Positions 9,456 through 49,868 are shown, numbered from the stretch's first letter. The stretch: 64,000 bases of DNA from Blautia sp. (GCA_050944615.1 JBMNRL010000016.1:4262-68261), one strand, 5' to 3'. Made by a program: numbers and translations. The notes: generated by a model not told the origin, from the letters alone.

Positions 9456-9540
9456 CACAAGAAAAAATCACCTGCGGTGAGATGCTTACGCAGTATCTTT
9501 CCATTCTGGGACAGTGTGGTCCCGCACGAAGTGCTCTTTG
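9456..9540 (-). repeat. Diverged copy of the terminator-associated palindromic repeat
   Basis: Aligns by eye to 49726-49868 (plus strand CACCTGCGGTG...CAGTGTGGTCCCGCACGAAGTGC); lies just downstream of the metA terminator. Confidence 0.7.
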
Positions 9541-9582
9541 ATTGGGTAAGATCGTACAGAGAATTTTCCTCCCAAACGAAAA

Positions 9583-9617
9583 GACCCCATAAACGGATAT
9601 CGTCCGTCTATGGGATC
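9583..9617 (-). terminator. metA terminator
   Basis: GACCCCATAAACGGA/TCCGTCTATGGGATC imperfect stem followed by TTTT on the minus strand. Confidence 0.65.
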
Positions 9618-9634
9618 CCTTATTCCTTCCTATA

Positions 9635-10555
9635 TCAAAACGGGGTTCCTACCATATCGTAGGGTGTTGCCTGATATACATAATAGTTCAGCCAATTGGT
9701 ATACAGATTATTGGCATGGGCCCTCCACATCAGAAGCGGTTTGTTTTCCGGATCATTCTCCCGGTAATAGTTCTTGGGAATCTCAATATCCAGCCCTTTT
9801 CCCAAGTCCCTTTTGTATTCTCCGTCCAAGGTCACCCGGTCATATTCCGGATGTCCCATGACGAAAATCTGCCGTCCTTCCTTAGCCATGGCCAAAAATA
9901 AGCCCGCCTCGTCGGATTCCGCCAGCACAGTCAGCTCCTTACATGCCCGGATATCCTCCATGGAAACCTCCGTATGACGGGAATGAGGTGCTAAGAATAC
10001 GTCGTCAAATCCTCTCACCAGCGGAATTTTCCGGTTCATCACCCGGTGCCAAAACAGACCGAACATTTTCTGATCCAACTGTCTCTTCTTCAGCCCGTAA
10101 TGGTAATACAGGCCGGCCTGGGCACCCCAGCACAGGTAAATGGTGGAGGTCACATTGGTCTTGGTCCATTCCATGATCTTAGTCAGCTCTTCCCAATAAT
10201 CCACCTCTTCAAATTCCATCTGCTCCACCGGCGCACCGGTGATGATCATACCATCAAATTTGTTATTTTTCAGATCATCAAACCCCAGATAAAACTTGTT
10301 CAGGTGGCTCATGGAGGTGTTTTTGGACTCATGGCTTTGTACGGCCATGAAAGTCACATCCACCTGCAGAGGTGTATTGGAAAGAGAACGCAGAAGCTGA
10401 AGCTCCGTCTCCTCTTTCAACGGCATCAGATTCAGGATCAGAATCTGGATGGGACGGATATCCTGATGCATCGCCCGATGCTCATCCATCACAAAAATAT
10501 TTTCCTTTTCCAAAATTCCTTTTACCGGTAAATCCCCTTGTATCTTAATCGGCAT
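9635..10555 (-). CDS. metA: Homoserine O-acyltransferase (MetA family, probably acetyl-specific)
   Basis: [24 protein letters not shown] and GHPEYD motifs. Confidence 0.95.
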
Positions 10556-10601
10556 AGCAATACTCCTTCCTTATCCCTAACATGCACTTCTGTCCTTTGG
10601 G

Positions 10602-12554
10602 CTATTTCAGCATCTCCAAGAAATCCTCCTCAGAGATCACCGGAATTCCCAGCTCTTTTGCCTTTTTATTTTTTGAGGAAGCAGATGCGGTATCATTGTT
10701 GATGAGATATGCCGTCTTGGAGGTGACACTTCCTGTCACCTTACCCCCTTTGGCCTCAATGACTGCCTTTACCTCATCCCGGTTGGCAAAATGGTGCACA
10801 CTTCCCGTCACTACGAAATTCATGCCGGCAAACCGCTTATCTTCTCCTTGGGACCGCTTTTCCAAATCTATATGGGAAAGCAGATGCTCCAAACGCTTCC
10901 TATTCTCTTCCTTCGCAAAATATCCCGCAATATTTCCGGCGATCACCGGCCCCACTCCGTCGATCTGACTGATCTCCTCTGCCGAAGCGCGACAAATCCG
11001 ATCCATGTTGTCTTCAAAATGGCTGCAGATCAATTTGGCATTGGCAGTTCCCACACCCGGAATGCCCAGACCATACAACAACCGCGGCAGGGTTGTCTTC
11101 TTCGCTTTTTCCAGACTGTCGACCAGGTTTTCATAAGATTTCTGACCGAAGCCTTCCATTTCTACGATTTCGTCTTTATGTTTGTAGATCTCAAAAATAT
11201 CCCCGAAATCGTGAATATACCCCCTGGCAATAAATTTTTCCAAGGTGGCCTCTGACAAACCGTCGATATTCATGGCATTGCGGCTCACAAACAGGGTAAA
11301 TGCCTTGATGCGCTTAGCCGGACATTCTTCGTTGGGACAATAAAGCGTCTCCACATCCTTGTCCTTTTGGATTTTCGTATGTCCTCCGCAGGCGGGACAG
11401 GCCTCTGGCACCGCAAGGTTTCCACTCCTTGTGAGGTTTTCCGCGATCTGCGGGATGATCATATTCGCCTTATAGACCTTAATATGATCTCCCAACCCCA
11501 ATTCCAATTCCCTGACAATACTCAGGTTGTGAACGCTGGCACGGCTGACGGTGGTTCCTTCCAGCTCCACCGGTTCAAAAACAGCAATCGGATTGATAAG
11601 TCCCGTCCTGGACGGCGACCATTCCACCTCTAAAAGCTGTGTCTCTTTCACTTCGTCCGCCCATTTAAAAGCGAACGAATTTCGGGGAAACTTGGCTGTG
11701 TTTCCCAAGGACTCCCCGTAAGCGATGTCATCATACAGAGCCACCAGGCCATCAGAAGGGAAATCATTTGTTTCCACAGCCTGGGAAAAGTAATCCATGG
11801 CCTCATCCAGGGTTTCCCCCGTCACCATCCGATATTCCACCACTTCAAAGCCCTGTTCCCTCAGCCATTCCATCTGTACCCGGCGGGAATTACCAAAATC
11901 CACGCCCGGCGCACTCACCAGTGCAAAGGCATAAAAACGGACATTCCTCTTGGCAGTGATCTCGTTGTTTAACTGGCGCACTGAACCGCTGCACAAATTT
12001 CTTGGGTTTTTATACCGGCCCTCGGCATCGGTAATCTGTTCATTAATACGCATAAAGTCTGAATAGGTAATAATGGCCTCTCCGCGAAGCACCAAACGGC
12101 CCTGGTAAGGGATCTCCAAAGGAATATTTTGAAATACCCGGGCATTGTTGGTGATGACCTCGCCCACCAATCCATTTCCTCTGGTCACCGCTTTCGCCAA
12201 AGCGCCTTCCTCATAGGTAAGGACGATGGTCAGCCCGTCTAACTTCCAGGACAAAAGCGTAGGCTGGCTGCCGATAAACTCCCGCAATGCCTCCCTATCC
12301 TTCGTCTTGTCCAGCGACAGCATCGGGCTTTCATGGGCTTCCTTGGGCAGTTCATCCATGGCTTCATAGCCCACATAATGGGTAGGGCTGCCAGACAGGA
12401 CCGTTCCTGTCTGACGCTCCAGCTCCAAAAGTTCATCATAGAGCCTGTCGTATTCCAGATTGCTCATGATCTCCCTGTCTTCCTGATAGTATGCTTTACC
12501 TGCCTCGTTTAGCTTTTGTACCAGCTCTTTCATTCTGTCCAACACCGCGGCCAT
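10602..12554 (-). CDS. ligA: NAD-dependent DNA ligase
   Basis: KLDG adenylation motif, AFKW, Zn finger CPACG...CPN..C, HhH repeats, BRCT domain. Confidence 0.97.
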   Translation of the reverse strand: MAAVLDRMKELVQKLNEAGKAYYQEDREIMSNLEYDRLYDELLELERQTGTVLSGSPTHYVGYEAMDELPKEAHESPMLSLDKTKDREALREFIGSQPTLLSWKLDGLTIVLTYEEGALAKAVTRGNGLVGEVITNNARVFQNIPLEIPYQGRLVLRGEAIITYSDFMRINEQITDAEGRYKNPRNLCSGSVRQLNNEITAKRNVRFYAFALVSAPGVDFGNSRRVQMEWLREQGFEVVEYRMVTGETLDEAMDYFSQAVETNDFPSDGLVALYDDIAYGESLGNTAKFPRNSFAFKWADEVKETQLLEVEWSPSRTGLINPIAVFEPVELEGTTVSRASVHNLSIVRELELGLGDHIKVYKANMIIPQIAENLTRSGNLAVPEACPACGGHTKIQKDKDVETLYCPNEECPAKRIKAFTLFVSRNAMNIDGLSEATLEKFIARGYIHDFGDIFEIYKHKDEIVEMEGFGQKSYENLVDSLEKAKKTTLPRLLYGLGIPGVGTANAKLICSHFEDNMDRICRASAEEISQIDGVGPVIAGNIAGYFAKEENRKRLEHLLSHIDLEKRSQGEDKRFAGMNFVVTGSVHHFANRDEVKAVIEAKGGKVTGSVTSKTAYLINNDTASASSKNKKAKELGIPVISEEDFLEMLK

Positions 12555-13302
12555 AATTTCCTCCTGCTTTTCCTTCTTTTTTCGTGGGCTCTTTCTCCAT
12601 CTGCTTCATCAGATAGTTCCACTCTTTTTTCGTGGCTTCCCGGTATTTTCCCACGGGCAGACCATCCAAATGGATATCCATGATCCGGATACGCCTAAGG
12701 CGTACCACCCGGCAGCCCAGGTATTCAAACATCCGCCGAATCTGGCGGTTCATGCCCTGGGTGAGTACGATGGAAAACTCCTTATCGCCCATTTTCTTCA
12801 CCTTACAAGGATTTGTCATCTTCCCAAGAACCGGAACTCCGCTGCCCATTCGCTTGAGAAAATCCGCTGTCACATCCTTATCAATCCGCACCAAATATTC
12901 CTTCTCATGACAAAAAGAAGGATGTGTCAGCCAATTGGCCAGCGGCCCGTAATTGGTGAGCAGGATCAGCCCCTCCGAATCCTGGTCCAGACGGCCGATG
13001 GGATATACCCGCACCGGATATCCAATATAATCTACAATATTATTCTTGTCCCGTTTTTGGGAAGTGCATACCACACCCCGGGGTTTGTGGAAAACCAGCA
13101 GTACATTTTTATCCTTTTTCCCCACAAGGCGCCCCTCCACGAACACCTGCTGTCCCGGCATCACACGGTCTCCCATCCGTGCCCTTCTGCCGTCGATGCT
13201 CACTTTCCCGGATTCGATCATCCGGTCTGCCTCTCTGCGGGAACAAATTCCATATTCACTTAAATATTTATTTATGCGGATTCCGCTCATTTCGATACTC
13301 AT
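12496..13302 (-). CDS. RNA pseudouridine synthase (RsuA/RluF family) with S4 domain
   Basis: RINKYLSEYGICSRREAD S4 domain; GRLDQDSEGL catalytic motif. Confidence 0.92.
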   Translation of the reverse strand: MSIEMSGIRINKYLSEYGICSRREADRMIESGKVSIDGRRARMGDRVMPGQQVFVEGRLVGKKDKNVLLVFHKPRGVVCTSQKRDKNNIVDYIGYPVRVYPIGRLDQDSEGLILLTNYGPLANWLTHPSFCHEKEYLVRIDKDVTADFLKRMGSGVPVLGKMTNPCKVKKMGDKEFSIVLTQGMNRQIRRMFEYLGCRVVRLRRIRIMDIHLDGLPVGKYREATKKEWNYLMKQMEKEPTKKEGKAGGNYGRGVGQNERAGTKAKRGR

Positions 13303-13308
13303 TTTCCT

Positions 13309-13337
13309 ATTATATAATCTTTTTTCTCCCTGTGCAA
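13309..13337 (-). promoter_or_regulatory. SigmaA promoter, possibly giving a leaderless mRNA
   Basis: TTGCAC-N17-TATAAT ending 6 nt before ATG 13302. Confidence 0.55.
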
Positions 13338-13392
13338 GGAGTGCTTTTTACGGTTTTCGTACAACAATTCCGCAAAAGTCCCCAGTTTTCTA

Positions 13393-13421
13393 TTGAATTT
13401 CCCATAAAATCCATGTATGAT
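13393..13421 (+). promoter_or_regulatory. SigmaA promoter of the deacetylase gene
   Basis: TTGAAT-N17-TATGAT with extended TG. Confidence 0.55.
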
Positions 13422-13485
13422 ATTGGTGTTAACATAAGTAGTGTTTCATTCAGGGGAGAATGAAATAAAAAAAGGGGGAAAGTAA

Positions 13486-14883
13486 GTGCCTGGTCGGAAG
13501 AAACGAACCAGTCGGGTGCTAATCCTTCTCACGGTGTTATTATCGCTGTTTTTTTCAGCGACTTTGACACAATCTTCTGCCAATCCTACGGCAGTATCCA
13601 GTGAGAAACAAATGCCCGACATCATAGTGGCCGAAAATACCCAGGAAAAAAGCCAGACTGCAGAGCTTACCGACAGCGGACTCACAGACGGCGATTTCCA
13701 AGGAGAGGCCAATACAGACGACCCAGCAAAAAAAGACGAGGAAACCTTTCAAAATTCCCAAAACACCGCCAAGGATGCGGATGAATCCTCTGCAGAGGAA
13801 CCAGAGGAGGAACCCATCGGCGACTGGATCTTGGATAATGGCAGCTGGTATTACCAAATCCACGATTATTACAAGACCGGATGGCTGTATGAAGACGACA
13901 AATGGTATTATTTCGATAAAACAGGCGTCATGCAGACCGGATGGGTAGAATCCCAGAAACGTTGGTTCTTCATGGATGAAGATGGTATCATGCAGACTGG
14001 ATGGGTACAGACGGGCGGCAAATGGTATCACATGGATGAGGAAGGCATCATGCAGACCGGATGGCTGGAGGTAGACGGACAATGGTACTACCTCAGCGAC
14101 AAAGGCGATATGCGGACCGGATGGATACAAATCGGTGACAAATGGTATTACTTTAATTCCAACGGCACCATGGCCACCGGGTGGATCGTAGCCAACGGCA
14201 AACGTTATTTCCTGCAGGATAATGGCGTATGGGATCCCGCCGCGGTTCCGGATGCCGCTTCTATTCCAGAAGCGCCCGAGGGCGCAATGGTAGCGCTTAC
14301 CTATGACGACGGGCCGGGACTGTACACAGACCGCCTGCTGGATACTTTAGAAGCCAACAATGCCAAAGCCACTTTCTTCATGCTGGGGGAAAATATACCA
14401 AATTACCCTTCCACGATTCAGCGTATGGAGGCGTTAGGCTGTGAACTCGGCAACCATACTGCGAACCATAAGGATCTGGCTGCCTTGACGCAGGAAGAAA
14501 TCACTGCCCAGGTAGGGCAGGTGGATCAGGCGCTCACCGATATCGTCGGACATGGCTCCACATTGGTGCGGCCGCCTTATGGATCCGCCAATGATCTGGT
14601 GAAGAGCACCGTGCAGGTGCCGCTCATTCTCTGGTCCATGGATACCCTGGACTGGAAGACCTTGGACATTCCTTCCACTGTGGATACAGTGTTTACCAAC
14701 ATCAAGGACGGCGATATCATACTGATGCATGACATTCACGAGACATCCGTGGCCGCATCTGAGATCATCATTCCTGCATTGGTGGAAAAAGGATATCAAT
14801 TGGTCACTGTCAGCGAGTTGGCAGCGGCAAAGGGAATTGAAATGCACACAGGAATCCTTTACGGAAATATGGGTCAGAATTAA
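13486..14883 (+). CDS. CE4 polysaccharide/peptidoglycan deacetylase with cell-wall-binding repeats
   Basis: About 7 x 20-aa GWxxxxxxWY(Y/F)...G.M repeats; TYDDGP, HTANH, RPPYG, DTLDW and LMHD motifs; N-terminal hydrophobic segment. Confidence 0.92.
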   Translation: MPGRKKRTSRVLILLTVLLSLFFSATLTQSSANPTAVSSEKQMPDIIVAENTQEKSQTAELTDSGLTDGDFQGEANTDDPAKKDEETFQNSQNTAKDADESSAEEPEEEPIGDWILDNGSWYYQIHDYYKTGWLYEDDKWYYFDKTGVMQTGWVESQKRWFFMDEDGIMQTGWVQTGGKWYHMDEEGIMQTGWLEVDGQWYYLSDKGDMRTGWIQIGDKWYYFNSNGTMATGWIVANGKRYFLQDNGVWDPAAVPDAASIPEAPEGAMVALTYDDGPGLYTDRLLDTLEANNAKATFFMLGENIPNYPSTIQRMEALGCELGNHTANHKDLAALTQEEITAQVGQVDQALTDIVGHGSTLVRPPYGSANDLVKSTVQVPLILWSMDTLDWKTLDIPSTVDTVFTNIKDGDIILMHDIHETSVAASEIIIPALVEKGYQLVTVSELAAAKGIEMHTGILYGNMGQN

Positions 14884-14901
14884 ATTTCAGACAAATGTCA
14901 T

Positions 14902-14939
14902 AAGGAGTGCCGGGCGATACTGCCTGGACACTCCTTTTT
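14902..14939 (+). terminator. Intrinsic terminator
   Basis: AAGGAGTG.C.GGC/GCCTGG.CACTCCTT stem plus T tract. Confidence 0.7.
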
Positions 14940-14941
14940 CA

Positions 14942-14974: not shown

Positions 14975-14976
14975 TA

Positions 14977-21708: not shown

Positions 21709-23124
21709 TCAGTCTTCTTTTCCGCTCCAGCAGTAGGTACAAAGCTTGCAAGGCGAAATACCCACAGACTTCACCATGTCATCCAGACGGTGGAAACGCA
21801 GAGAAGTAAAATTCAATTCCTTCCGCATATCCTCCAGCATTTCCTTGTAGCACAGGGAATCCGGATCTGCATACTCCTGAAGCCTTTCCTGGGTCACATC
21901 CCCTTCTCTTTTCTGGATGATCCTTCTGGTGATCAGATCCATCTCAGATTTGGAGCGGGAAAAATTCAGATATTTGCATCCGAACAAAAGCGGCGGGCAG
22001 GCCGGACGGATATGCACTTCTTTCGCACCGCTGTGATACAGAAATTCCGTGGTCTCCCGAAGCTGCGTTCCGCGGACGATGGAATCGTCAATGAGCAGCA
22101 GACTCTTGTCCTTAATCAGCTTATGCACCGGGATCAGCTTCATCCTGGCGATCAGGTTTCTCTGGTTCTGGTCTGTTGGCATAAAAGAACGGGGCCAGGT
22201 CGGCGTATATTTGATAAACGGACGGGCAAAGGGAATGCCGGAGCAGTTGGCATAACCGATGGCATGGGCGATGCCGGAGTCTGGAACACCGGCCACGATA
22301 TCCGGCTTCACATTGTCTTCCATATCCCTTCTGGCCAGCATATCACCACATTTATAACGCATATCCTCCACATTCACGCCTTCATAGGTAGATGTGGGAT
22401 AGCCATAATAAACCCACAAAAAGGAACAGATCTTCATCTTATCCCCAGGCTGTATCAGGGTCTCCACACCCTCTGGTGTGATATAGACCACCTCTCCGGG
22501 TCCCAGCTCCCGGTAATCGTCATACCCTAAGTTGATAAAGGCAAAGCTTTCAAAGGAAACACAATAAGCATCTTCTTTGCATCCTAAAATCACTGGCATT
22601 CTTCCCAGCAAATCCCTGGCCGCATACAGCCCCTTTGGCGTCATCACCAGGATGTTCATGGAACCTTCGATCATCTCCTGTGCATAGCGGATCCCTTCCA
22701 CCAGGCTGGACTTCTGATTGATTAAGGACGCCACCATCTCCGTAGGGTTCACATTTCCGCCACTCATTTCCAGAAAATGAGTACAGCCATTTTTATATGC
22801 CCGGTCAATGAGCTGGTCCATATTATTAATTTTCCCCACCGTAGTGATGGCAAAGCTGCCCAGATGGGACTGTACCATCAACGGCTGCGGCTCATTGTCA
22901 GAAATACAGCCGATTCCCAGATTGCCCTTCAATTCCGTGACATCCCGCTCAAACTTCGTGCGGAAAGGAGAATTCTCAATGTTATGAATGGCCCTGTCAA
23001 ATCCTTTTGGTCCATAGACAGCCATACCGCCTCTGCGGGTGCCTAAATGAGAATGATAGTCAGTTCCGAAAAACAAATCCAACACGCAGTCGGATTTAGA
23101 TGCAACACCAAAAATTCCACCCAT
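21709..23124 (-). CDS. purF: Amidophosphoribosyltransferase-like protein lacking the N-terminal catalytic Cys
   Basis: MGGIFG start, PRPP loop IDDSIVRGT, VPDSG, Fe-S Cys pattern (CPP, CKLCTYCW). Confidence 0.88.
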   Translation of the reverse strand: MGGIFGVASKSDCVLDLFFGTDYHSHLGTRRGGMAVYGPKGFDRAIHNIENSPFRTKFERDVTELKGNLGIGCISDNEPQPLMVQSHLGSFAITTVGKINNMDQLIDRAYKNGCTHFLEMSGGNVNPTEMVASLINQKSSLVEGIRYAQEMIEGSMNILVMTPKGLYAARDLLGRMPVILGCKEDAYCVSFESFAFINLGYDDYRELGPGEVVYITPEGVETLIQPGDKMKICSFLWVYYGYPTSTYEGVNVEDMRYKCGDMLARRDMEDNVKPDIVAGVPDSGIAHAIGYANCSGIPFARPFIKYTPTWPRSFMPTDQNQRNLIARMKLIPVHKLIKDKSLLLIDDSIVRGTQLRETTEFLYHSGAKEVHIRPACPPLLFGCKYLNFSRSKSEMDLITRRIIQKREGDVTQERLQEYADPDSLCYKEMLEDMRKELNFTSLRFHRLDDMVKSVGISPCKLCTYCWSGKED

Positions 23125-27902: not shown

Positions 27903-27938
27903 AAAAAGGGAAGGACGTTTCATGGTCCTTCCCTTTTT
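27903..27938 (+). terminator. gdhA terminator
   Basis: AAAAAGGGAAGGAC/GTCCTTCCCTTTTT inverted repeat. Confidence 0.85.
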
Positions 27939-28075
27939 TATTGTATAGGAAAGTTCTTCGAATTTCCTATACAATAAAAAACACTCCGTGCAGGATCGCA
28001 CTGCGGCGGAATGGAAGAATGCCGCTTATGCGACCCGCCGCAGGCGGAGAATCCTGCGAGCAGGATTCTTTCTTG
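27934..28075 (+). repeat. Full copy of the terminator-associated palindromic repeat
   Basis: Reverse complement is near-identical (two differences by eye) to 49726-49868. Confidence 0.9.
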
Positions 28076-28104
28076 TGTGGCAATAGCTGCCCCGATCGCT
28101 GCTC

Positions 28105-37715: not shown

Positions 37716-39521
37716 TTGAGGAAAGTCAAGATACTATTTATTGCGCCTTATCCGGGCCTGGTAGAGCCGATCAACCATGTGATCAAAGCCCATCATGATA
37801 TTGAGGCCACCATTAAGATCGGCGATATGAAGGATGGCGCTCTTATCGCAAAATCCATGATGGTCCATCACTATGACGTAATCATTTCCCGCGGCGGTAC
37901 CGCAGAGCTCATTCGGAAGTCTGTGGAACTGCCGGTAGTAAATATTCCGGTATCCGTTTACGATATCATCCGTTCCATTAAAATGGCGGAAAACTACTGC
38001 GAAGATTTCGCCATTGCCGGTTATCCCAGCATCACCGAATGCGCCAAAATTCTCTGCGATCTCCTGCAGTTGAATACCGAAATCATCACCTTTGACAAAA
38101 TGGAAGACATTCCCCAACAGCTGGGGGCCCTGCGCAAAAAAGGCTACGAGCTGGTAATCTGTGATACCATCGGTGTGACCACGGCCAGCCAGATGGGCAT
38201 GAATTCCATTCTCATCTCCTCCTGGACGGAAAGCATCGAACAGGCAGTGGAAAATGCCCGCTCCCTGGTCAGATCCTCGTATTATTATTTTCGCCAGAAA
38301 GAAATTTTCCAATCCATCCTCACCAGCAAAGAGGAGGATCTGCTCATTTATGATCCCAATGGCCTTTTGTGGTTTTCCAGCATCTCCAAGCCGACGATGC
38401 AGAACATGGTTTACAGCCTGGTACAGCCCTATCTTCCCTCCTTTTTACAGGAACCGGGACAAAAAATTGAGAAACGGGCGGGCTCCACACTCTATTCCAT
38501 ACAGAACCGCCATTTCTATCCCGACGGTCAGAAATACACGGTGATCACCATTTCCCGCAAGGAGTTCCTGTTTTCTGAACAAGATCAGAGCATCTCCATC
38601 TACAACCAGCGGGAAGAAGGCAACGAGGATTTCAGCTTCAGCTACAACAGCGCCAACTATATCGGCAATATCCGGGATACCATCGATTCTTACAGCAAAA
38701 CTTTGTTTCCCGTGCTGATCCTGGGGGAAAACGGCACCGGCAAGGATAAGGCCGCTTCCATCATCTATAAAAACAGCTCCTTACAAAACCATCCGCTGTA
38801 CACGGTGGACTGTGAGCTTCTGGGCGAACGGCGCTGGTCCACCTTACTTAGCAGCAGCAATTCCCCGCTGAACTCCGTGAACAGCACCATCTACTTTAAG
38901 AACATCAATTTTCTCAATAATGCGCAGCTGGAACGGCTGATTTCCTATATGGACCAGGCCAATCTCTCCAGGCTGAACCACTTGTTATTTTCCTACGTGG
39001 AAACACCCGGCGCCCCATCCAGTGAATCCTCCATCTGCAATTACCTGATGAACCGCACAAACTGCCTGGTGCTGCGCTTGCCGCCTCTTAGAGAACGGCA
39101 GAAAGACATCCCCAGCATCTTAACATTATACTTAAACCAGCTAAACCTGGAACTGGGCAAGCAGATCATCGGTTTCGAACCGGAAGCCATGGACCTGATG
39201 AAGAACTTCCCGTGGCCGCAGAATTTAAACCAGCTTCAGCGGATTCTCCGGGAACTGGCGGTGCTCACCACGGATTCCTACATCACCAAAAAGGCCACCA
39301 AAGAACGCTTAAAAAGTGAAAGCTTCTCCGCTTCCTTGCCCTGGCAGGAGGCCAAGGACTTTCCTCTGGACTTAAACCGTTCCCTGGAGGAAATCAATTA
39401 TGATATCATCCGCATGGTTTTGAGTGAAGAAAACAACAACAAAGAAAGAGCCGCCAAGCGGCTGGGCATCAGCCGCAGCACTCTCTGGCGGATCTTAAAG
39501 GCGCATGACAGCACCCAATAG
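37716..39521 (+). CDS. PrpR-N domain / AAA-like / Fis-HTH transcriptional regulator (GAFTGA-less)
   Basis: N-terminal DVIISRGGTA (PrpR_N), Walker A GENGTGK, WPQNLNQL, C-terminal NKERAAKRLGISRSTLWR; TTG start after GAGGAGG. Confidence 0.88.
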   Translation: MRKVKILFIAPYPGLVEPINHVIKAHHDIEATIKIGDMKDGALIAKSMMVHHYDVIISRGGTAELIRKSVELPVVNIPVSVYDIIRSIKMAENYCEDFAIAGYPSITECAKILCDLLQLNTEIITFDKMEDIPQQLGALRKKGYELVICDTIGVTTASQMGMNSILISSWTESIEQAVENARSLVRSSYYYFRQKEIFQSILTSKEEDLLIYDPNGLLWFSSISKPTMQNMVYSLVQPYLPSFLQEPGQKIEKRAGSTLYSIQNRHFYPDGQKYTVITISRKEFLFSEQDQSISIYNQREEGNEDFSFSYNSANYIGNIRDTIDSYSKTLFPVLILGENGTGKDKAASIIYKNSSLQNHPLYTVDCELLGERRWSTLLSSSNSPLNSVNSTIYFKNINFLNNAQLERLISYMDQANLSRLNHLLFSYVETPGAPSSESSICNYLMNRTNCLVLRLPPLRERQKDIPSILTLYLNQLNLELGKQIIGFEPEAMDLMKNFPWPQNLNQLQRILRELAVLTTDSYITKKATKERLKSESFSASLPWQEAKDFPLDLNRSLEEINYDIIRMVLSEENNNKERAAKRLGISRSTLWRILKAHDSTQ

Positions 39522-39645
39522 AATCCTGCGCGCAGGATTCTCCGCCTGCGGCGGGCCGCATACGCGGCATCCTTCCCTTCCGCCGCAGTGCGATCCCGCA
39601 CGGAGGGCTTTTTGTTTCATAGGACGCAATTTCCTATGAAAAAAT
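39521..39645 (-). repeat. Copy of the terminator-associated palindromic repeat
   Basis: Plus strand GAATCCTGCGCGCAGGATTCTCCGCCTGCGGCGGG...GCAGTGCGATCCCGCACGGAGGGC...TTTCATAGGA..TCCTATGAAA, clearly homologous to 49726-49868. Confidence 0.85.
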
Positions 39646-39646
39646 A

Positions 39647-39687
39647 GAAAGCAGCAGTCCATCGTCAACCGGTGGGCTGCTGCTTTC
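39647..39687. terminator. Terminator (likely bidirectional)
   Basis: GAAAGCAGCAG/CTGCTGCTTTC stem with T tracts on both sides. Confidence 0.75.
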
Positions 39688-39746
39688 TTTTCTATTGCTT
39701 CTATATACTTATATGATCTACAAGTCTGTCTGTGTATGCGGCGCTG

Positions 39747-40118
39747 CTACTGCGCTGCATTCGCGCCGGAATTCCCGGAAGTATCTTCTGCTACGTTTGA
39801 TGCTGCCTCTCCGTCTGCAGAACTATCGGCTTTGCTGCCTGCGGCAGCGCCGCTGCTTTCACTCTTCTCAGCCGCATCCTTGCCGCTCTCATCCTGGGGG
39901 ACATCCGTATCCTCAGCCTGGAATTCAGAAGAACTCTCATCACTTTGCATCTGTTCTTCCTCCATCTGGCTACCATCAGTGGAATCCTGTTGTGACTCCT
40001 GTGTGGTCTTGGTATCGGAGGCTTGTTCAGAATCCTCCCCGCATCCCGTGAGTAAAGCCATGGACAATGCTGCCATACACGCAAAACTTAAAACCTTCAA
40101 ATATTTTTTCTTTAACAT
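39747..40118 (-). CDS. Small acidic low-complexity lipoprotein
   Basis: Basic N-terminus, hydrophobic stretch, lipobox LLTGC, S/E/D/A/Q-rich tail; RBS AAGGAG. Confidence 0.75.
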   Translation of the reverse strand: MLKKKYLKVLSFACMAALSMALLTGCGEDSEQASDTKTTQESQQDSTDGSQMEEEQMQSDESSSEFQAEDTDVPQDESGKDAAEKSESSGAAAGSKADSSADGEAASNVAEDTSGNSGANAAQ

Positions 40119-44696: not shown

Positions 44697-44760
44697 AAGA
44701 TTTTTCCTCTTTCCCAACTTTTTTCTCAGATTTTACTTTTGATTTGTTAAAGTATTCCTA

Positions 44761-44810
44761 TGTCAAAAATCTGCCTTAGCAGGTATTGTCCTGCTAAGGC
44801 AGCCTTGACA
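44761..44810 (-). terminator. Strong hairpin between sigE and the Na/Pi gene (terminator or attenuator)
   Basis: CTGCCTTAGCAGG-N6-CCTGCTAAGGCAG perfect 13-bp stem, extended by TGTCAA/TTGACA, followed by ATTTTT on the minus strand. Confidence 0.65.
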
Positions 44811-44870
44811 CCTGAAACCTAATGGGAATTTACCAAAAAATCTCATGTCCTATCTATCTTACAATGATAA

Positions 44871-44893
44871 AATCTATGTTAAATCTATGTAAA
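44871..44893 (-). promoter_or_regulatory. Putative Pho box
   Basis: TTTACA-TAGAT-TTAACA-TAGAT direct repeat with 11-bp period upstream of a phosphate transporter. Confidence 0.6.
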
Positions 44894-44898
44894 GCGCT

Positions 44899-45639
44899 TT
44901 ACTCATACTTTACGATTTCTTTTTTCAATCTTTTCATGATCCGTTTCTCCAGCCTGGAGATATAGGACTGAGAAATCCCCAGATAATCCGCCACCTCTTT
45001 CTGCGTCTTTTCCTTGCCGTCAGCCCCAGAGAGCCCGAAGCGGAGCTTAATGATGGTCTGTTCCCTGGGTGTGAGCTTGCCGATGGCTTTTTCCAAAAGA
45101 TTCCGCTCTACCTCATGCTCAATGTCCCGGTAAATCACATCCTCGTCAGTACCCAGGATATCGGAAAGCAGCAGTTCATTGCCGTCCCAGTCCACATTCA
45201 GCGGTTCATCGATGGAGACCTCCATCTTCGTTTTGTTGTTCCGCCTCAGATACATCAAAATTTCATTTTCGATGCACCGGGACGCATAGGTGGCAAGCTT
45301 TATTTTCTTCACCGGATTGAAGGTATTGATGGCCTTGATCAGGCCGATGGTGCCGATGGAAATCAGATCCTCCACCCCCACACCGGTGTTGTCAAATTTT
45401 TTGGCAATGTAGACCACCAGCCGGAGATTATGCTCGATGAGCTGTGTGCGGGCTTCCTGAGGCTGGCTGCTGCCCAGCTTCTGGATCATCACCGCCTCTT
45501 TTTCCGGCGCCAGCGGAGCCGGAAGCACCTCTGTTCCCCCGATATAATGGACTTCTCTGGGATTTCGGAACATAACGCCTGGAAATCTGGAAATGACTTG
45601 GATTGGATTGTAACCAAATGCTGCTGCTTTTGAACTCAT
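44899..45639 (-). CDS. sigE: Pro-sigmaE sporulation sigma factor
   Basis: [66 protein letters not shown]. Confidence 0.96.
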
Positions 45640-45653
45640 AGATGTGACCCCTC

Positions 45654-46511
45654 CTAAATCTTGCGATATAACAATTTGGAATTTAATATCATCTGATACT
45701 CAGCTCCCAAAGCGGAAGGATTCAAAGAAATCGCAACGATTGGATTTGGAATATGAACCACTTCCCGCGGAGTATGAATGCATAAATCCTCTAGTGTGAC
45801 TGCCAATAGCATGCCCTCATTCCCGATCGTCCGATAAGGAAGAAAGTGCGGCTGCAGTTTCGGCAGCGCGGTATATTCCAGCTCCCCTGATTCTTCTTGA
45901 AAGTGCCTTAACCTATCCCACATCTCTTCTGATAAAAGTTCCTCCAATACCTCTTTACCTACAATGGAAACAGGTTTTGCGGACGCCATATCCGTCAGAA
46001 CGTTTCCTGTATCATACAGCCCGTACAGGTCAACGCCGTTTCCGCCGTACCCCAGGCGGACCGGATAAATGTGCTTCCTCTTTATCTGTACATAATCGTA
46101 CCCTATGGAAATACAGGTAAAGAGCAGGTAGCTGCAGGCGGTAAAAAGCAAAAAAGTTTTCAGGTTCATCTCACTTTTGTCAGACATCGCTTCCCAAAAA
46201 CCTCCACATAAAAACGCTGTCAGATACAGCGCCACTATCGCTTTTACCAGCATACTGCCGGTCTTTACTTGACATCCTACCTTCGCCATCAGCACTGCAG
46301 TCAGTCCCTGCAGCAAAATGGACGAAGGAAAGAAGCTATCTGTGGGTAAAAATAAAAGCAGACAGGCCATCAAGGCTCCTATGGCCGCTCCTGCCAGACT
46401 GCGTATCCTGCTGCTTCTGCAGTCCAGGAAACCGCCCACCAGCCGAAGCAGAACATAGTCCATAAAAAGATTCGTCACAAAGACAACATCCAGGTAAATC
46501 TCGTAGTACAC
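45654..46511 (-). CDS. spoIIGA: SigmaE processing peptidase SpoIIGA
   Basis: [21 protein letters not shown], 5 TM segments, aspartic motif YDTGN; probable GTG start at 46511; directly upstream of sigE. Confidence 0.9.
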
Positions 46512-46559
46512 AAAAACCCCCCTATGACCTGTCATTCCTTCACTTTGGTAAGTGAACCC

Positions 46560-46660
46560 ATTATAGGCCATAGGGGGGTATTGTTTTTGTCAAAACCAGT
46601 GTGTCGGTTTTTATAAGTTTTCGAGCGCATTCGACAAAGTTTCCTGCCTTATGTCGACCA
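46560..46660 (-). promoter_or_regulatory. Spo0A-dependent spoIIG promoter with 0A boxes
   Basis: TTGACA (46588-46593)-N22-TATAAT (46560-46565); perfect TGTCGAA at 46630-46636; near-consensus TGTCGAC at 46652 and TGTCGGT at 46602. Confidence 0.75.
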
Positions 46661-46678
46661 AATGCGGGAAATCAGGGA

Positions 46679-47485
46679 TCATTTTTCTCCCAAAGTCCCA
46701 GCCGGCGCATGTTGTCCCGCATGGGAGTCCTTGTGGAAAATCCCCATCAGCTCCCGCAGCTCCTCGATGGGGATCTGTCCCGGCGCAGAAGCCTTGCCCA
46801 CCACGCCAAAGGTGATGGAGGAACCGAACAGCTCTCCGGAAAAACGGCTCAGTCCGCCCATGTCTCCCATGGCCATGGTGACCACCGGTTTCTCGGTGTA
46901 TTCCACTGTCATGTCATTGGTCGCTTCCAAAAGCTCCCACACATCAAACAGTGTCTTGGGCATCACTGCGATCTTTAAAATATCGCCGCCAGCCTTATCC
47001 AGCTTCTGCATGAGCTTGAACAATTCCTTCTTCGGCGGAGCCGCTGTGAAATTGTGGCTGGAGGCGATGACCTTGCCCCCGTTCTCATGGATCCTGTTTA
47101 TCAGGCGCCGCATCTTCCCTTCCTCTGTCAGCGCTTCCACATCGATCAAATCCGCGATCCCAAGTTCTGACACCTTTTGATTGATGTTTACATAATCTTC
47201 TGTCGAAATTTGCAGTTCGCTGCCCTCTCTGGCAGTACGGATCGTAAAAATTATCGGAATTTGTTCTAAAATGCCGGCGATGGTTTTCAGTATATCTTCC
47301 ACTGCTGACTGGTCAAACAGTCCACTAAAAAAGTCCGCTCTCCACTCCGCCATGTCTGCGCCTGCGGCCACCAAAGCCTCCGCCTCCCGGCACAGCTCTT
47401 CTTTATCCACGCCCACCATGGGCACACAGATCTTCGGCAGGCCTTCCCCTACCAATATATTTTTAAGCCTCACTGATCGTGTCAT
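46679..47485 (-). CDS. aroD: Type I 3-dehydroquinate dehydratase
   Basis: PKICVP, EWRADF, FTIRTAREG, IASSHNF, ILKIAVMP, SAPGQI. Confidence 0.93.
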   Translation of the reverse strand: MTRSVRLKNILVGEGLPKICVPMVGVDKEELCREAEALVAAGADMAEWRADFFSGLFDQSAVEDILKTIAGILEQIPIIFTIRTAREGSELQISTEDYVNINQKVSELGIADLIDVEALTEEGKMRRLINRIHENGGKVIASSHNFTAAPPKKELFKLMQKLDKAGGDILKIAVMPKTLFDVWELLEATNDMTVEYTEKPVVTMAMGDMGGLSRFSGELFGSSITFGVVGKASAPGQIPIEELRELMGIFHKDSHAGQHAPAGTLGEK

Positions 47486-47549
47486 AAGTATCTCCTGCTC
47501 CTGTCCGGCGGCAGTTCCAAAGCTATAGCTGCCGCCGGATAAGTGTTCC

Positions 47550-49475
47550 TTAATCTTCTGTTTCTACTTTCCGCACCGTACGGTTTGCAATTTCCTTTTG
47601 GATATCCGCAATGAATGCGTCCAGATCCTTAGAGCCTTCGTCTCCCAAGAAACGGCTTCTCACGGATACTTTGCCTTCTTCCTCTTCCTTGGCGCCTACC
47701 ACCAGCATGTACGGAATCTTCTGCAGACGGGCTTCCCGGATCTTATAGCCGATCTTTTCCGCCTTAGTGTCAATCTCTGCACGGATACCGGCATCGTTTA
47801 ACGCTTTCAGCACTTTTTCCCCGTATGCGGCATATTTGTCAGAAATCGGCAGCACCTTCACCTGCACCGGCGCAAGCCAGGTAGGGAATGCGCCTGCAAA
47901 ATGCTCGATGAGAATTCCGATAAAACGCTCGATGGAACCGAAAGCCACGCGGTGAATCATGATCGGTCTGTGTTTTTCCCCATCTGCGCCGATATATTCC
48001 AGATCAAAACGCAGCGGAAGCTGGAAATCCAGCTGAATGGTACCGCACTGCCAGGTCCTGCCGATGGAATCTTCCAAATGGAAATCGATCTTTGGACCGT
48101 AGAATGCGCCATCGCCTTCATTGACCACATAATCCAATCCCAGGTCATCCAATGCGCCTCTTAGAGCATCGGTAGCCATCTCCCAATCCTCATCACTTCC
48201 CATGCTGTTCTCCGGTCGTGTGGAGAGCTCCACATGATATTTGAAGCCAAACAGCTTATAAACCTCATCGATCAGCCTTGCCACGCCTTTGATCTCCTCG
48301 CGGATCTGCTCCGGCATCATGAAGATATGGGCATCGTCCTGGGTAAAGCAGCGCACCCGCATCAGGCCGTGAAGCTGACCAGATTTCTCATGACGGTGCA
48401 CCAGACCCAGCTCGCCCATGCGCAGCGGCAGATCCCGGTAAGAACGGGGTTCTGCCTGGTAGACCAAAATACCGCCCGGGCAGTTCATCGGTTTGATGGC
48501 AAAATCCTGCTCATCAATCACCGTGGTATACATGTTGTCCTTGTAATGATCCCAATGGCCAGAGGTCTCCCACAGATGGCGGCTGAGCATGATCGGAGTC
48601 GCGATCTCCACATAGCCGTTTTTCTTATGGATCTCTCTCCAATAATCCAACAAGGTGTTCTTCAGCACCATCCCCTTGGGCAGGAAGAACGGGAATCCCG
48701 GCCCTTCTTCACGCATCATGAAGAGCCCCAGCTCTTTGCCCAGCTTTCTGTGGTCACGTTTTTTCGCTTCCTCAATCCTGGCCAGATGCTCGTCTAAATC
48801 CGCTTTTTTTGTAAAAGAAGTGCCGTAAATACGGGTCAGCATCTTATTCTTCTCGCTGCCTCTCCAGTAAGCGCCTGCCAGGCTGGTGAGCTTAAAGGCC
48901 TTCACCGGCTTAGTGCTCATAAGGTGTGGTCCCGCGCACAGATCCACAAATTCACCCTGCTGATAGAAGCTGATCACCGCATCCTCCGGAAGGTCCTGAA
49001 TCAGCTCCACCTTATAAGGCTCGCCTTTTTCTTCCATAAAAGCGATGGCCTCTGCCCTGGGCTTGGTGAACTGCTCAATTTTTAAGTTCTCTTTGACGAT
49101 TTTCTTCATTTCGCCTTCGATCTTCTCCAGATCATCCGCGGTGATCGGCGTCTCGGAGTCCACATCATAGTAAAAACCATCCGCGATGGAGGGACCAATA
49201 GCCAGCTTCACATCCGGATACAGGCGCTTGATGGCCTGGGCCATAATATGGGAGGTGGTGTGATGAAATGCCCCACGGCCGCCCTCATCGTTAAAGGTCA
49301 GGATATTCAGACTGCAGTCCTGATCCACCACTGTCCTTAAATCCACAACCTCTCCGTCCACTTCTCCGGCACAGGCCATCCTGGCCAGTCCCTCGCTGAT
49401 ATCAGCGGCGATCTCATAGACTGATTTTGCTTCCTGGTACTCTTTTACTGAGCCGTCTTTCAATGTAATGATCAT
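47550..49475 (-). CDS. thrS: Threonyl-tRNA synthetase
   Basis: TGS domain, DLCAGPH, RDHRKLG, KPMNCP, HRHE.SG.LHGLMRVR.FTQDDAH, WQCGTIQLDF, HRVAFGSIERF. Confidence 0.98.
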   Translation of the reverse strand: MIITLKDGSVKEYQEAKSVYEIAADISEGLARMACAGEVDGEVVDLRTVVDQDCSLNILTFNDEGGRGAFHHTTSHIMAQAIKRLYPDVKLAIGPSIADGFYYDVDSETPITADDLEKIEGEMKKIVKENLKIEQFTKPRAEAIAFMEEKGEPYKVELIQDLPEDAVISFYQQGEFVDLCAGPHLMSTKPVKAFKLTSLAGAYWRGSEKNKMLTRIYGTSFTKKADLDEHLARIEEAKKRDHRKLGKELGLFMMREEGPGFPFFLPKGMVLKNTLLDYWREIHKKNGYVEIATPIMLSRHLWETSGHWDHYKDNMYTTVIDEQDFAIKPMNCPGGILVYQAEPRSYRDLPLRMGELGLVHRHEKSGQLHGLMRVRCFTQDDAHIFMMPEQIREEIKGVARLIDEVYKLFGFKYHVELSTRPENSMGSDEDWEMATDALRGALDDLGLDYVVNEGDGAFYGPKIDFHLEDSIGRTWQCGTIQLDFQLPLRFDLEYIGADGEKHRPIMIHRVAFGSIERFIGILIEHFAGAFPTWLAPVQVKVLPISDKYAAYGEKVLKALNDAGIRAEIDTKAEKIGYKIREARLQKIPYMLVVGAKEEEEGKVSVRSRFLGDEGSKDLDAFIADIQKEIANRTVRKVETED

Positions 49476-49539
49476 TTCTTTCTCTCCTTTTTATTCATTG
49501 ATATGAATTTTTGTATTTATTAAGATTCGGGTGCCAAAA

Positions 49540-49725
49540 AGGACTCGGACGCAATTTCCTATGACAGAACAAAGTGGGCAAGCCCACCTCAAGCTCCCCC
49601 TCCCCTCAATCTTTGAGGGGCTTGACAGCTTTGCGCGCCAGATGCACTTTCCTCTTGCATCTGTGCGCATCCCGCACGAAGTGCTTTTTTGTTGTATAGG
49701 AAATTTGAAGAACTTTCCTATACAA
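49540..49725 (-). repeat. Mosaic of diverged/partial repeat modules in the thrS leader
   Basis: GGACGCAATTTCCTATGA is identical to 39622-39639 and CCCGCACGAAGTGC to 9521-9534; TTGTATAGGAAA..TTTCCTATACAA hairpin; extra GTGGGC/GCCCAC, CCCCTCAA/TTGAGGGG and CAGATGCA/TGCATCTG hairpins. Confidence 0.75.
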
Positions 49726-49868
49726 CAAGAAAGAATCCTGCTCGCAGGATTCTCCGCCTGCGGCGGGTCGCATAAGCGGCATTCTTCCCTTCCGCCGCAG
49801 TGCGATCCTGCACGGAGTGCTTTTTTATTGTATAGGAAATTCGAAGAACTTTCCTATACAATAAAAAA
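49726..49868 (-). repeat. Full copy of the terminator-associated palindromic repeat
   Basis: Near-identical to 27934-28075; begins in the U-tract of the T-box terminator. Confidence 0.9.

Follow-up and report, generated by a model that had tools for sequence, protein, structure and literature searches.

Structured, gene-less repeats behind intrinsic terminators in Blautia and other Lachnospiraceae, and their probable spread by insertion at terminator T tracts

Repeat copies in the Blautia window

The window, a stretch of 64,000 nucleotides from a Blautia genome, contains five copies and remnants of one modular repeat. The motif common to the copies, GCACTNCGTGCNGGA, gave five matches with at most one mismatch against 0.06 expected, and none of 100 shuffles reached five. 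Sequence comparison recovered the four homologous copies of the earlier note (here A, B1, C and D) at the positions it gave. As it had also described, each sits behind a terminator-like hairpin (here assigned to gdhA, the T-box, a 123-aa ORF and metA, respectively), and all are oriented with the terminated transcript.

Copy A (27940-28075, plus strand) is complete and lies behind its putative target, the intrinsic terminator of gdhA with its T tract (27903-27939, plus strand; 14-bp stem, T tract 27934-27939). It comprises a hairpin, H1 (27940-27975), an A tract (27976-27981), the core CACTCCGTGCAGGAT (27982-27996), a stem, P2, with a GGAAUGGAAGAAU bulge (about 27997-28047), a second hairpin, P3 (28048-28069), and the tail TTCTTG (28070-28075). 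Copy B1 (49726-49862, minus strand), also complete, starts immediately behind the thrS T-box terminator, whose T tract occupies 49863-49868. Between the two regions previously called a near-identical pair, 27934-28075 and 49726-49868, identity is 98% over 101 nt and reaches 100% in a 48-nt hairpin.

The stretch 49540-49725, earlier read as partial modules, instead holds a complete element of a second subfamily, copy B2 (49566-49725, minus strand), placed head to tail against B1, and a remnant. The H1 and core of B2 are as in B1, whereas its P2 differs (CAGAUGCA..UGCAUCUG); its P3 is a long variant (GCCCCUCAAAGAUUGAGGGG..GGGCUUGCCC), its tail is CTTTGTTCT (49566-49574), and four loci from other genomes have the same architecture. 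The remnant, B3 (about 49545-49565, minus strand), is half an H1 hairpin (TCATAGGAAATTGCGTCC) resembling the H1 of copy C. Lying 70 nt upstream of the thrS ATG (49475), at the distal end of the array, it is all that is left of an older unit.

Copy C (39520-39638, minus strand; H1 39618-39638) is 90-94% identical to A and B1 and has no T-rich tail. It adjoins the host T tract 39639-39644, and its putative target is the terminator stem (39646-39688, minus strand) of an unnamed 123-aa ORF (39747-40118, minus strand). The last two bases of copy C are the AG of the TAG stop codon of a convergent PrpR-like sigma-54 activator gene (37716-39521, plus strand). Copy D (about 9458-9574, minus strand) is decayed and lies behind the metA terminator (stem about 9586-9616), with a degenerate H1 (9541-9574), the core GCACTTCGTGCGGGAC (9520-9535) and the tail TTTTTTCTTG (9458-9467). 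In its P2-like part, a compensated UCACC/GGUGA replaces CCGCC/GGCGG; P3 is absent.

The thrS T-box leader (49893-50132, minus strand) was recognised with 67.8 bits (E 2.6e-14), below the Rfam gathering score of 93, and its terminator and T tract (about 49863-49905, minus strand) are the putative insertion target of B1 and B2. The leader promoter, with the consensus TTGACA-16-TGnTATAAT, lies at 50181-50208 (minus strand), and no other sigma-70-like promoter was found from there to the thrS ATG on that strand. Because there is no promoter downstream of the T-box, the thrS mRNA must cross B1 and B2.

Architecture and folding of the repeat family

The repeat unit is 130-170 nt long and modular, with three or four hairpins and no gene of its own. 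The host terminator and T tract are followed by the long AT-rich hairpin H1 (ATAGGAAA..TTTCCTAT), the A tract, a conserved core (CUCCG..GGAU), the GC-rich stem P2 with a purine bulge, and the terminal hairpin P3 with a T-rich tail. The core, which is GCUCCGCG..GGAU in other Blautia copies, is strongly conserved across genera, and CUCCG and GGA are its only invariant parts; GCAC-N3-GTGC, listed earlier as a module, is not a universal pairing. The TTCTTG tail listed with it is present in copy A but is only one variant, the usual tails outside the window being CTTTGTTCT and TTTTTTAT.

The right boundary is precise; on its left the element begins within the host T tract or where that tract ends. 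In one MAG, five near-identical copies have exactly the span from (G)TCTCATAGG to CTTTGTTCT in common, behind host T tracts that vary. Target-site duplications were absent from these five copies and from those of the window, the left flank being a T tract and the right flank unrelated. Terminal inverted repeats were also absent: the left end (..TCTCATAGGAAA) does not complement the right end (..CTTTGTTCT), inverted repeats occur only as internal hairpins, and H1 and P3 are unrelated in sequence. In arrays the units are head to tail, the terminator-proximal unit intact and the distal units decayed.

We found no transposase and no reverse transcriptase in the 64-kb window, and neither recurred in about 2.3 Mb of flanks around the copies. 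A RAYT (Y1 HUH) gene was likewise missing from the window, with no recurrent ORF family of this kind in the flanks, no Y2 or RepHel gene was found, and no TnpA/TnpB gene was found near copies.

Compensatory changes preserve the hairpins. The P3 stem occurs in at least 12 different sequences, every one self-complementary. Among 72 Blautia-type copies, cells were paired in 98.9% of cases; changes on both sides affected 8 pairs and 20 cells, whereas shuffles gave 1.0 and 1.2, and none of the 500 reached the observed values. Copies fold far better than shuffled sequences, with z from -5 to -9 and a weaker value for the decayed copy D; in the window, z was -7.6 for A, -7.8 for B1, -5.5 for B2, -5.3 for C and only -2.1 for D. 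The window copies fold equally well on either strand. The forward-strand bias is modest (32 versus 16 elements; 135 versus 72 G-U pairs) and is not significant in the Blautia set (about 16 G-U versus 9 A-C).

An invariant core across genera, together with a purine bulge and hairpins kept by compensatory change, would also be expected of a functional RNA. On this reading, which we consider unlikely, read-through transcripts would be cut at the ~20-bp H1 duplex, for example by RNase III, releasing a stable RNA of ~100 nt with the core, P2 with its GGAAGAU bulge, and P3 as its own terminator. The RNA would bind a conserved protein, or act as a back-up terminator or insulator; terminator adjacency would be selected for biogenesis, and spread would be secondary. 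The slightly better folding of the forward strand and its more numerous G-U pairs agree with this, as does the resemblance of P3 and its U-rich tail (UUUUUUAU in gut Blautia copies) to an intrinsic terminator; however, copies also lie in the leaders of essential genes (5' side), where efficient termination would be deleterious. No promoter was found inside the element, which is consistent with read-through biogenesis. In metatranscriptome contigs, word depth is greater over the element than in the flanks, although such an excess is also expected from multi-copy DNA or RNA. Single loci decay (D, B3 and copies truncated on either side), and purifying selection therefore does not maintain a given locus; close relatives have empty orthologous sites. 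The 3'-end RNA module offered in the earlier note fits poorly, because terminated transcripts stop before the element and because several copies lie in 5' leaders.

Terminator adjacency, occupied sites and distribution

The terminator-directed placement proposed for the window copies was also seen across the family. Among the matches listed, 68 of 71 evaluable copies (96%) start within 2 nt of a terminator-like hairpin with a T tract, compared with 102 of 3000 random positions (3.4%). The upstream gene was co-directional in 53 of 57 cases, and the downstream gene was co-directional in 56 and convergent in 16, again among the matches listed. Any intrinsic terminator type serves: gene ends, T-box attenuators and a tRNA operon. 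Three T-box leaders were recognised at the Rfam gathering score and three by motif, including that of the window, and one target is a tRNA gene.

We compared empty and filled sites, as the earlier note had suggested, and both window sites examined in this way are empty in relatives. At the thrS site, three relatives have the T-box terminator, then 36 nt, then the ATG, whereas the window and five further loci (L114-L118) carry two units at the identical point. The second unit of L116 and L118 differs from that of L114, L115 and L117, which indicates strain-level variation. The gdhA site is empty in six relatives.

The family is widespread in Lachnospiraceae, with at least about 70 true copies in species genomes; cultured carriers include Agathobacter ruminis, Anaeromicropila herbilytica and Blautia. 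More than 120 gut metagenome contigs carry the repeat among the matches listed, and at least hundreds of sites exist in many genera. In the metagenome containing this genome, word depth was 500-1500 over the element versus ~12 in the flanks, and metagenome assemblies break at this repeat. The repeat is multi-copy within as well as across genomes. Near-identical copies occupy unrelated loci within one genome: copies of ~140 nt, 98-100% identical, stand behind unrelated terminators of a single genome.

These copies bear on whether the repeat moves at all. It is highly improbable that it is not mobile, being either a binding site or structure convergent at terminators or a sequence spread only through homologous recombination or gene conversion. 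Module swaps between strains at the thrS site do resemble recombination, and neither an enzyme nor a transposition intermediate was found. However, so much common sequence goes beyond convergence, and conversion requires a pre-existing copy. Such near-identical copies, precise boundaries, empty orthologous sites and a presence at no fewer than hundreds of sites across many genera all argue for movement.

Proposed mechanism and known systems

We therefore regard the elements as probably non-autonomous structured repeats of 130-170 nt that spread in Lachnospiraceae by one-orientation insertion at the ends of terminator T tracts. Mobility is what the comparative patterns suggest; no transposition event, excision product or moving enzyme was seen. 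The element would move as a folded single strand, in which the constant A tract 3' of H1 would pair with the T tract of the terminator and the H1 stem would extend into the target, the insertion point being where this pairing ends. The right end, P3 with its T-rich tail, would imitate the target. The terminator would survive insertion and could be hit again, and such repeated hits would produce arrays. How well T tract and A tract complement each other depends mostly on the subfamily, and within subfamilies the signal is weak (21 versus 15.6; 63 of 2000 permutations as high); any T tract pairs with any A tract, so the A tract is no more than a candidate guide. The conservation of the core across genera could instead reflect a host protein or a selected RNA function. 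In RNA, the element would be carried along in read-through transcripts and in some 5' leaders, including that of thrS, where its hairpins may attenuate transcription or invite processing; contigs from rumen metatranscriptomes contain host terminators joined to it.

The catalyst would act in trans. Our guess, a tentative one, is an HUH-type enzyme that nicks and joins single-stranded DNA, like those of IS200/IS605 or of IS91/Helitrons; a reverse-transcriptase route as in group IIC introns is the second candidate.

By analogy, the repeat appears to behave most like group IIC introns, and in form it comes nearest to SPRITE and BOX, two pneumococcal repeats. Group IIC introns reportedly insert after the terminator in sense orientation, and are said to recognise the stem-loop as single-stranded DNA together with a short stretch of pairing to the T-rich 5' exon. 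The repeat shares the sense insertion after intrinsic terminators, and its A tract likewise faces the T tract, but it has no ribozyme domains I-VI, no 5' GUGYG or 3' AY ends and no intron-encoded protein. A retroelement passenger, copied via RNA and then inserted by a reverse transcriptase, that of a resident group IIC intron or another, is quite unlikely. The A-tract/T-tract pairing would then replace EBS1-IBS1, with single-stranded DNA as the form in which the terminator stem-loop is recognised. The target is the one reported for IIC introns, for which a review (PMC4424553) gives intrinsic transcription terminators as insertion sites; A tract and T tract are complementary, and the element is transcribed within read-through RNAs. 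Nevertheless, it measures only 130-170 nt and has no domain V, and when copies A, B1 and B2 were searched against Rfam with an E cut-off of 10, the matches were spurious miRNA-like hairpins only, with no intron family. The lack of a reverse transcriptase in the window, or of a recurrent one in the flanks, also speaks against this route, and there is no clear truncation polarity (5 copies 5'-deleted versus 8 3'-deleted, in a sample anchored mid-element).

SPRITE is an 18-bp AT-rich duplex between AAAA and TTTT, terminator-like and enriched beside CDS 3' ends, whereas BOX is modular (A, Bn, C), one BOX element being composite with T-box leaders (PMC3049150, Croucher et al. 2011). Both are likewise small, structured, gene-less interspersed repeats of a Firmicute; compared by description only, SPRITE resembles H1 and BOX the module swapping. 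They belong to another taxon, with no sequence relation seen, and are almost confined to S. pneumoniae and S. mitis, whereas the repeat is conserved across many genera. SPRITE is itself a terminator, whereas the repeat sits behind a separate host terminator; terminal inverted repeats and target duplications, both absent from the repeat, are features of BOX and RUP.

We found no sign of a described family, as the earlier note had supposed: at the gathering score, the only Rfam match in the whole window was a tRNA, and no description of this repeat was found in the searchable literature. Its REP/BIME-like or MITE-like assignment stands as far as a non-autonomous, terminator-targeting family goes, but it lacks defining features of REP, BIME and MITE. 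REP/BIME are similarly high-copy extragenic palindromes, mostly at gene ends and in mosaic arrangements, for which a single HUH (Y1) enzyme, RAYT, is the presumed mover in trans. The repeat, however, has no 20-40-nt unit with a GTAG head and no inverted doublets (REPINs), and instead forms direct arrays in one orientation relative to the upstream gene. Classical MITEs have terminal inverted repeats matching an IS and a target duplication, and the repeat lacks both.

Like the repeat, IS200/IS605 elements have hairpins near both ends and lack terminal inverted repeats and target duplications; in IS200, the hairpin at the left end doubles as a terminator (PMC4513863). They insert strand-specifically 3' of a short conserved sequence paired to a guide located at the base of the left hairpin, and the constant left-flank type of the repeat, a T tract, is comparable to such fixed-sequence insertion. 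However, their end hairpins resemble each other, as H1 and P3 do not, and their target is a fixed tetra- or pentanucleotide, whereas the repeat seems to need a hairpin and a T tract. IS91/ISCR and Helitrons also lack terminal inverted repeats and duplications, have a hairpin near the 3' end and form head-to-tail arrays. The target tetranucleotides of IS91 are GTTC and CTTG, and two tail variants of the repeat end in these. The IS91 tetranucleotide flanks the origin end and is part of the target, whereas that of the repeat lies at the far end and is part of the element, its left flank being a T tract instead.

The placement behind terminators hints at terminator-seeking spread. A bolder reading, which we hold to be unlikely, is a new kind of mobile element, in which a gene-less folded strand finds its targets by structure and base pairing. 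The A tract would dock on the U/T tract of any intrinsic terminator, the H1 stem would stack on the target, and integration would occur exactly where termination releases the transcript, catalysed by a host-encoded or distant trans-acting enzyme of a type not yet tied to such repeats. If this were true, the terminators of a whole bacterial family would be a generic landing pad.

Copies, module order and folding

The copy positions of the earlier note were borne out by the repeat finder and by sequence inspection. Within the window, copy A (27940-28075, +) and copy B1 (49726-49862, -) shared 98% identity over 101 nt (27976-28076 against 49725-49825) and 100% identity over 48 nt (27934-27981 against 49821-49868). 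Copy C (39520-39638, -) was 90% identical to A over 105 nt (39520-39624 against 27965-28069) and was a direct copy of B1 with 94% identity (39520-39613 against 49732-49825). The 15-nt motif GCACTNCGTGCNGGA, common to all copies including copy D (9458-9574, -), gave five matches with at most one mismatch in the window, against 0.06 expected. The fifth match (49670-49684) lies in the interval 49540-49725, previously taken for partial modules; this interval instead holds a unit of another subfamily (B2, 49566-49725, -) and a half-hairpin (B3, 49545-49565, -).

Module order was identical in every copy and followed the strand of the upstream gene, confirming the single orientation relative to the terminated transcript. 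The host terminator stem and its T tract are followed by H1, a long AT-rich hairpin (NNNN-ATAGGAAA-loop-TTTCCTAT-NNNN), an A tract, the core (G)CACUCCGUGCAGGAU, the GC-rich stem P2 with a 10-13-nt purine bulge GGAAUGGAAGAAU and a small apical hairpin, the terminal hairpin P3 and, as the last module, a T-rich tail. The element has no ORF of its own, and the neighbours of the window copies are ordinary genes encoding GdhA, a LytTR regulator, a PrpR-like sigma-54 activator, MetA, ThrS and an SBP_bac_5 solute-binding protein. The TAG stop (39519-39521) of the sigma-54 activator gene (37716-39521, +) shares the last two bases of copy C on the opposite strand (C end part, 39520-39541), and the element may have reshaped the 3' end of this gene.

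Copies A, B1, B2 and C folded well beyond shuffled sequence (z from -5.3 to -7.8); copy D (z -2.1) did not and is a decayed copy. The P3 sequence was subfamily-specific but always self-complementary (GAGUCGC/GCGACUC, GAGUUGC/GCAACUC, GAGCCGC/GCGGCUC, GAAUAUCGC/GCGAUAUUC, GAAUCCUGC/GCAGGAUUC, GAGUUUGC/GCAAACUC and others). Covariation was evaluated in 72 alignable Blautia-type copies; a MAFFT alignment across subfamilies misaligns the stems. Standard pairs filled 98.9% of the cells, and changes on both sides were found in 8 of 25 pairs (20 cells), compared with 1.0 pairs and 1.2 cells in column shuffles, none of 500 being as high; sliding the partners as a control yielded 0-4. P2 is fixed by the search pattern, and covariation is uninformative for this stem either way.

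Across the family, fold stability favoured the forward strand in 32 elements and the reverse strand in 16, with a mean difference of 1.8 kcal/mol, and the forward strand carried more G-U pairs (135 against 72). Both strands of the window copies folded equally well, and wobble changes in the Blautia set favoured the forward strand by only about 16 to 9. The H1 stem extends outward, placing the host T tract opposite the element A tract. This complementarity exceeded every permutation across the family but was weak within subfamilies (21 against 15.6; 63 of 2000 permutations as high), and it is mainly the palindrome of each subfamily meeting a generic T tract. Locus-specific covariation of the two tracts was therefore rejected. 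Templating of the A tract from the host T tract, by a hairpin or P-nucleotides, was also rejected, since young copies all have the same A tract whereas the host T tracts differ. Long-loop H1 variants (such as those at loci L011, L025, L040 and L086) have an H1 loop enlarged by a conserved insert, GACCTTGTTGCATTAACGTATGAAGGTCATGAA, of about 34 nt; the insert contains the small palindrome GCATTAATGC and was present in 19 of 70 measured copies of the species-genome set, about a fifth.

Other repeats and surface proteins were observed in the window. At 4936-4975 (-), directly past the stop of an NlpC/P60 gene (4989-6758, -), stands a solitary H1-like hairpin, CCCCATAGGAAT..ATTCCTATGGGG, with GTGTTCTTTGTTT after it. 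It is the sole terminator-like structure of that gene and looks like a minimal or internally deleted family member consisting of H1 and the tail. Two in-frame tandem repeats were found, one with a 24-30-nt period in the NlpC/P60 gene (6390-6584) and one with a 60-nt period (13874-14190), encoding the choline-binding-type cell-wall repeats of a polysaccharide deacetylase (13486-14883). The 4104-aa ORF at 51631-63945 (-), with SdrD B-like and CarboxypepD_reg-like domains and the internal direct repeats D4, D10 and D11, is probably a giant surface adhesin. Two ORFs, of 1234 aa (14-3718, -) and 471 aa (21709-23124, -), had no Pfam match at E 1e-5; the former lies directly downstream, on the same strand, of a gene (3735-4655, -) with a type IV pilin-like N-terminal methylation motif.

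Distribution and placement behind terminators

One genome per species was scanned with the pattern TTTCCTAT-N10-16-CTNCGTGCNGGA, which includes no terminator. The scan resulted in at least 113 loci, about 70 of them true copies. Among the loci listed, all true copies were in Lachnospiraceae or unnamed Clostridia/Bacillota MAGs, and the named carrier genera were Butyrivibrio, Agathobacter, Coprococcus, Faecalimonas, Lachnoclostridium, Anaeromicropila and Mobilitalea; the remaining matches were chance hits in other phyla. A 5'-module profile found 84 copies in these loci and the window, or 83 without the chance match L017.

A terminator, defined as a hairpin of dG <= -7 kcal/mol and a T-rich tract ending at most 2 nt from the H1 start, was detected at 68 of 71 evaluable copies, against 102 of 3000 random positions in the same loci. 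By crude ORF calls, 53 of 57 resolvable copies had a co-directional upstream gene; downstream, the gene was co-directional in 56 cases and convergent in 16, and divergent contexts were essentially absent. The terminator-directed placement proposed in the earlier note is thus upheld. Some copies follow T-box terminators, identified at the Rfam gathering score (L007, L100 and L110) or by the T-box motif (the window, L096 and L097), and one follows a tRNA gene (L011). The T-box copies lie in 5' leaders, where a 3'-end function would be senseless, which favours targeting over selection for a 3'-end role.

Metagenome contigs were scanned with GGATCGCACTGCGGCGGANNGGAAG, from the middle of the window-type element, yielding at least 123 matches on at least 120 contigs and at least 97 distinct sites, many from human or primate gut samples. 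In the mid-element-anchored sample, H1 was present in 74 of 91 copies and an upstream terminator in 64 of 91, both lower bounds because the strict script misses variant hairpins. A few copies have lost H1 by deletion, as in L228. This contig belongs to one recurrent gut metagenome locus (L167, L173, L186, L218 and L228) with a consensus-like promoter, TTGACA..TATACT; a short hairpin and T tract stand about 10 nt past the promoter, followed by the element. Compared with L167 and L173, L228 has cleanly lost the T tract, H1 and the A tract. The target at this locus may be a very short transcript or an attenuator.

ThrRS and GdhA comparisons placed the window organism close to Candidatus Blautia gallistercoris (94% identity); an exact look-up of the window ThrRS and GdhA ORFs returned no record because ORF starts differ. 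Copy density ranged from 5 in the 64-kb window down to about 1 additional copy for every 100 kb of fetched loci, which corresponds to tens to a few hundred copies per genome. Word depth in the sole public run with the window genome was 500-1500 for the element, a whole-community sum, against about 12 for unique flanks. The Logan unitigs of this run break at every window copy, and 29 of the 123 listed metagenome matches (L130-L249) lay within 130 nt of a contig end, making the repeat a practical cause of fragmented Lachnospiraceae MAGs. The plasmid collection gave no match, and in viral-contig scans the element was absent or matched only by chance. Fifteen unannotated 'Bacteriophage sp.' records from human faeces (MT835472 to MT839789) in the phage collection carried Blautia-type copies with 73-90% identity. 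Either the element has targeted prophage or phage terminators in them, or they are bacterial contigs deposited as phage; they are uninformative on mechanism.

Insertion sites, arrays and transcription

Five near-identical copies in one MAG (L009, L013, L021, L023 and L092) shared exactly the sequence from (G)TCTCATAGG to CTGCTTTGTTCT. The preceding bases varied (TTTTATT, TTTTTC, TTTTTTA, TTTTTTA and TTTTTAA) and the 3' bases were unrelated. Since the left bases vary and the shared start is exact, the T tract is the host's, and the element starts about 7 nt past the terminator stem. Neither terminal inverted repeats nor target duplications were found in these five copies, as previously noted for the window.

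The earlier note had suggested comparing empty and filled sites, and both states were found. The gdhA site was empty in every fetched relative, including those with 94% GdhA identity. At thrS, three loci of a Blautia species with 89% ThrRS identity (L119-121) have the T-box terminator GGGACGGGCTTTT, then 36 nt and the ATG, with no element, whereas the window and B. gallistercoris (L114-118) have two units after the T tract. The second unit varies within B. gallistercoris (L116 and L118 against L114, L115 and L117).

Arrays run head to tail without spacer, the B1-B2 junction being ..TTCTTG followed directly by TTGTATAGG... In the window array, the terminator-adjacent B1 is young (98-100% identical to A), the next unit is of another subfamily and the last is a half-hairpin; the same gradient was observed in L040, L110 and L014. 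The terminator would survive each insertion and permit repeated hits, which could produce this gradient. Similar junctions would also arise if a new copy entered behind the terminator-like P3 of one already present.

The thrS T-box (49893-50132, -) scored 67.8 bits (E 2.6e-14). It is real, but as the Rfam gathering score is 93 it would escape default annotation. Several T-boxes of relatives are likewise below the cut-off, L096 and L097 being detected by motif only. B1 and B2 separate the T-box terminator from the thrS start codon. On the thrS strand, the only sigma-70-like promoter predicted from the leader to the ATG is a perfect TTGACA-16-TATAAT, which precedes the T-box; thus, the thrS mRNA must include B1 and B2, and the element enters transcripts at least as a passenger. 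Rumen metatranscriptome contigs, which lack strand and end information and may include DNA carry-over, carry H1 and the core fused to various host terminators, and the stretch that they share ends at the element boundaries.

A processed small RNA, for example with RNase III cutting the 20-bp H1 duplex and P3 acting as terminator, is a live rival explanation; however, individual copies decay and orthologous sites are empty, which argues that single loci are not under selection. Promoters within the element were rejected: no sigma-70 promoter was predicted inside the copies, and by inspection the spacing of a sigma-54 promoter in GCAC-N3-GTGC is 2 nt short. A candidate CsrA-type GGA hairpin, which resembles the CsrA SELEX consensus, was likewise set aside.

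Proposed mobilisation and relation to known systems

The window encodes housekeeping and surface proteins only, with no mobilising gene, and all-against-all ORF clustering, which covered genome loci (about 0.8 Mb) and metagenome loci (0.9 Mb), revealed no recurrent transposase-like family, extending the earlier observation that no transposase is evident. A linked transposase was rejected, as the flanking ORFs clustered only as paralogues of the ABC, response-regulator and similar kinds.

The strict placement is striking and can be tested directly. For the mechanism we infer that a folded single strand of the element would recombine, because there are no inverted repeats or duplication, a conserved hairpin stands immediately within one end and another hairpin lies a few bases from the opposite end, orientation is single, and the target is a hairpin with a short tract able to pair with the element. 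Rolling-circle transposition of the IS91/Helitron type is a further precedent for folded-strand recombination. We weakly favour an HUH-type enzyme acting in trans: IS200/IS605 elements use such enzymes, and the IS200 left-end hairpin is itself a terminator (PMC4513863). Retromobility like that of group IIC introns, whose insertion sites are intrinsic terminators (PMC4424553), is less favoured; no ribozyme was detected in the Rfam search at the gathering score or at E up to 10, and polar, reverse-transcription-like truncation was not seen in the mid-element sample. Target-primed reverse transcription with one-sided truncation was rejected, as deletions in that sample affect both sides. To our knowledge, no mobile element besides group IIC introns targets the intrinsic terminator as such.

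These introns are the nearest match to the element in behaviour, and the pneumococcal SPRITE and BOX repeats, by published description, are the nearest in form. SPRITE is an 18-bp AT-rich duplex, flanked by runs of A and T, that lies beside gene 3' ends; BOX is modular, with one case of fusion to T-boxes (PMC3049150). The element lacks the features that define MITEs, REP/BIME elements and group II introns. The Rfam search, also suggested in the earlier note, returned only tRNA, T-box and spurious miRNA-like hairpins at the gathering score and at E up to 10, with no family matching the element, and queries by sequence and by topic gave no description in the searchable literature. Genome annotations therefore probably leave the repeat unlabelled. 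We rate the element as a small structured interspersed repeat with strict terminator homing, conserved across a whole bacterial family.

A gene-less element that targets terminators suggests an unrecognised mobilising activity, and it is a simple system in which to study recognition of a hairpin and T tract. The repeat is common in dominant gut Lachnospiraceae, including Blautia, Butyrivibrio, Agathobacter and Coprococcus. Its copies lie in aminoacyl-tRNA synthetase leaders, from the T-box terminator to the start codon, and between co-directional genes, where they may alter read-through, processing or translation of the adjacent genes.
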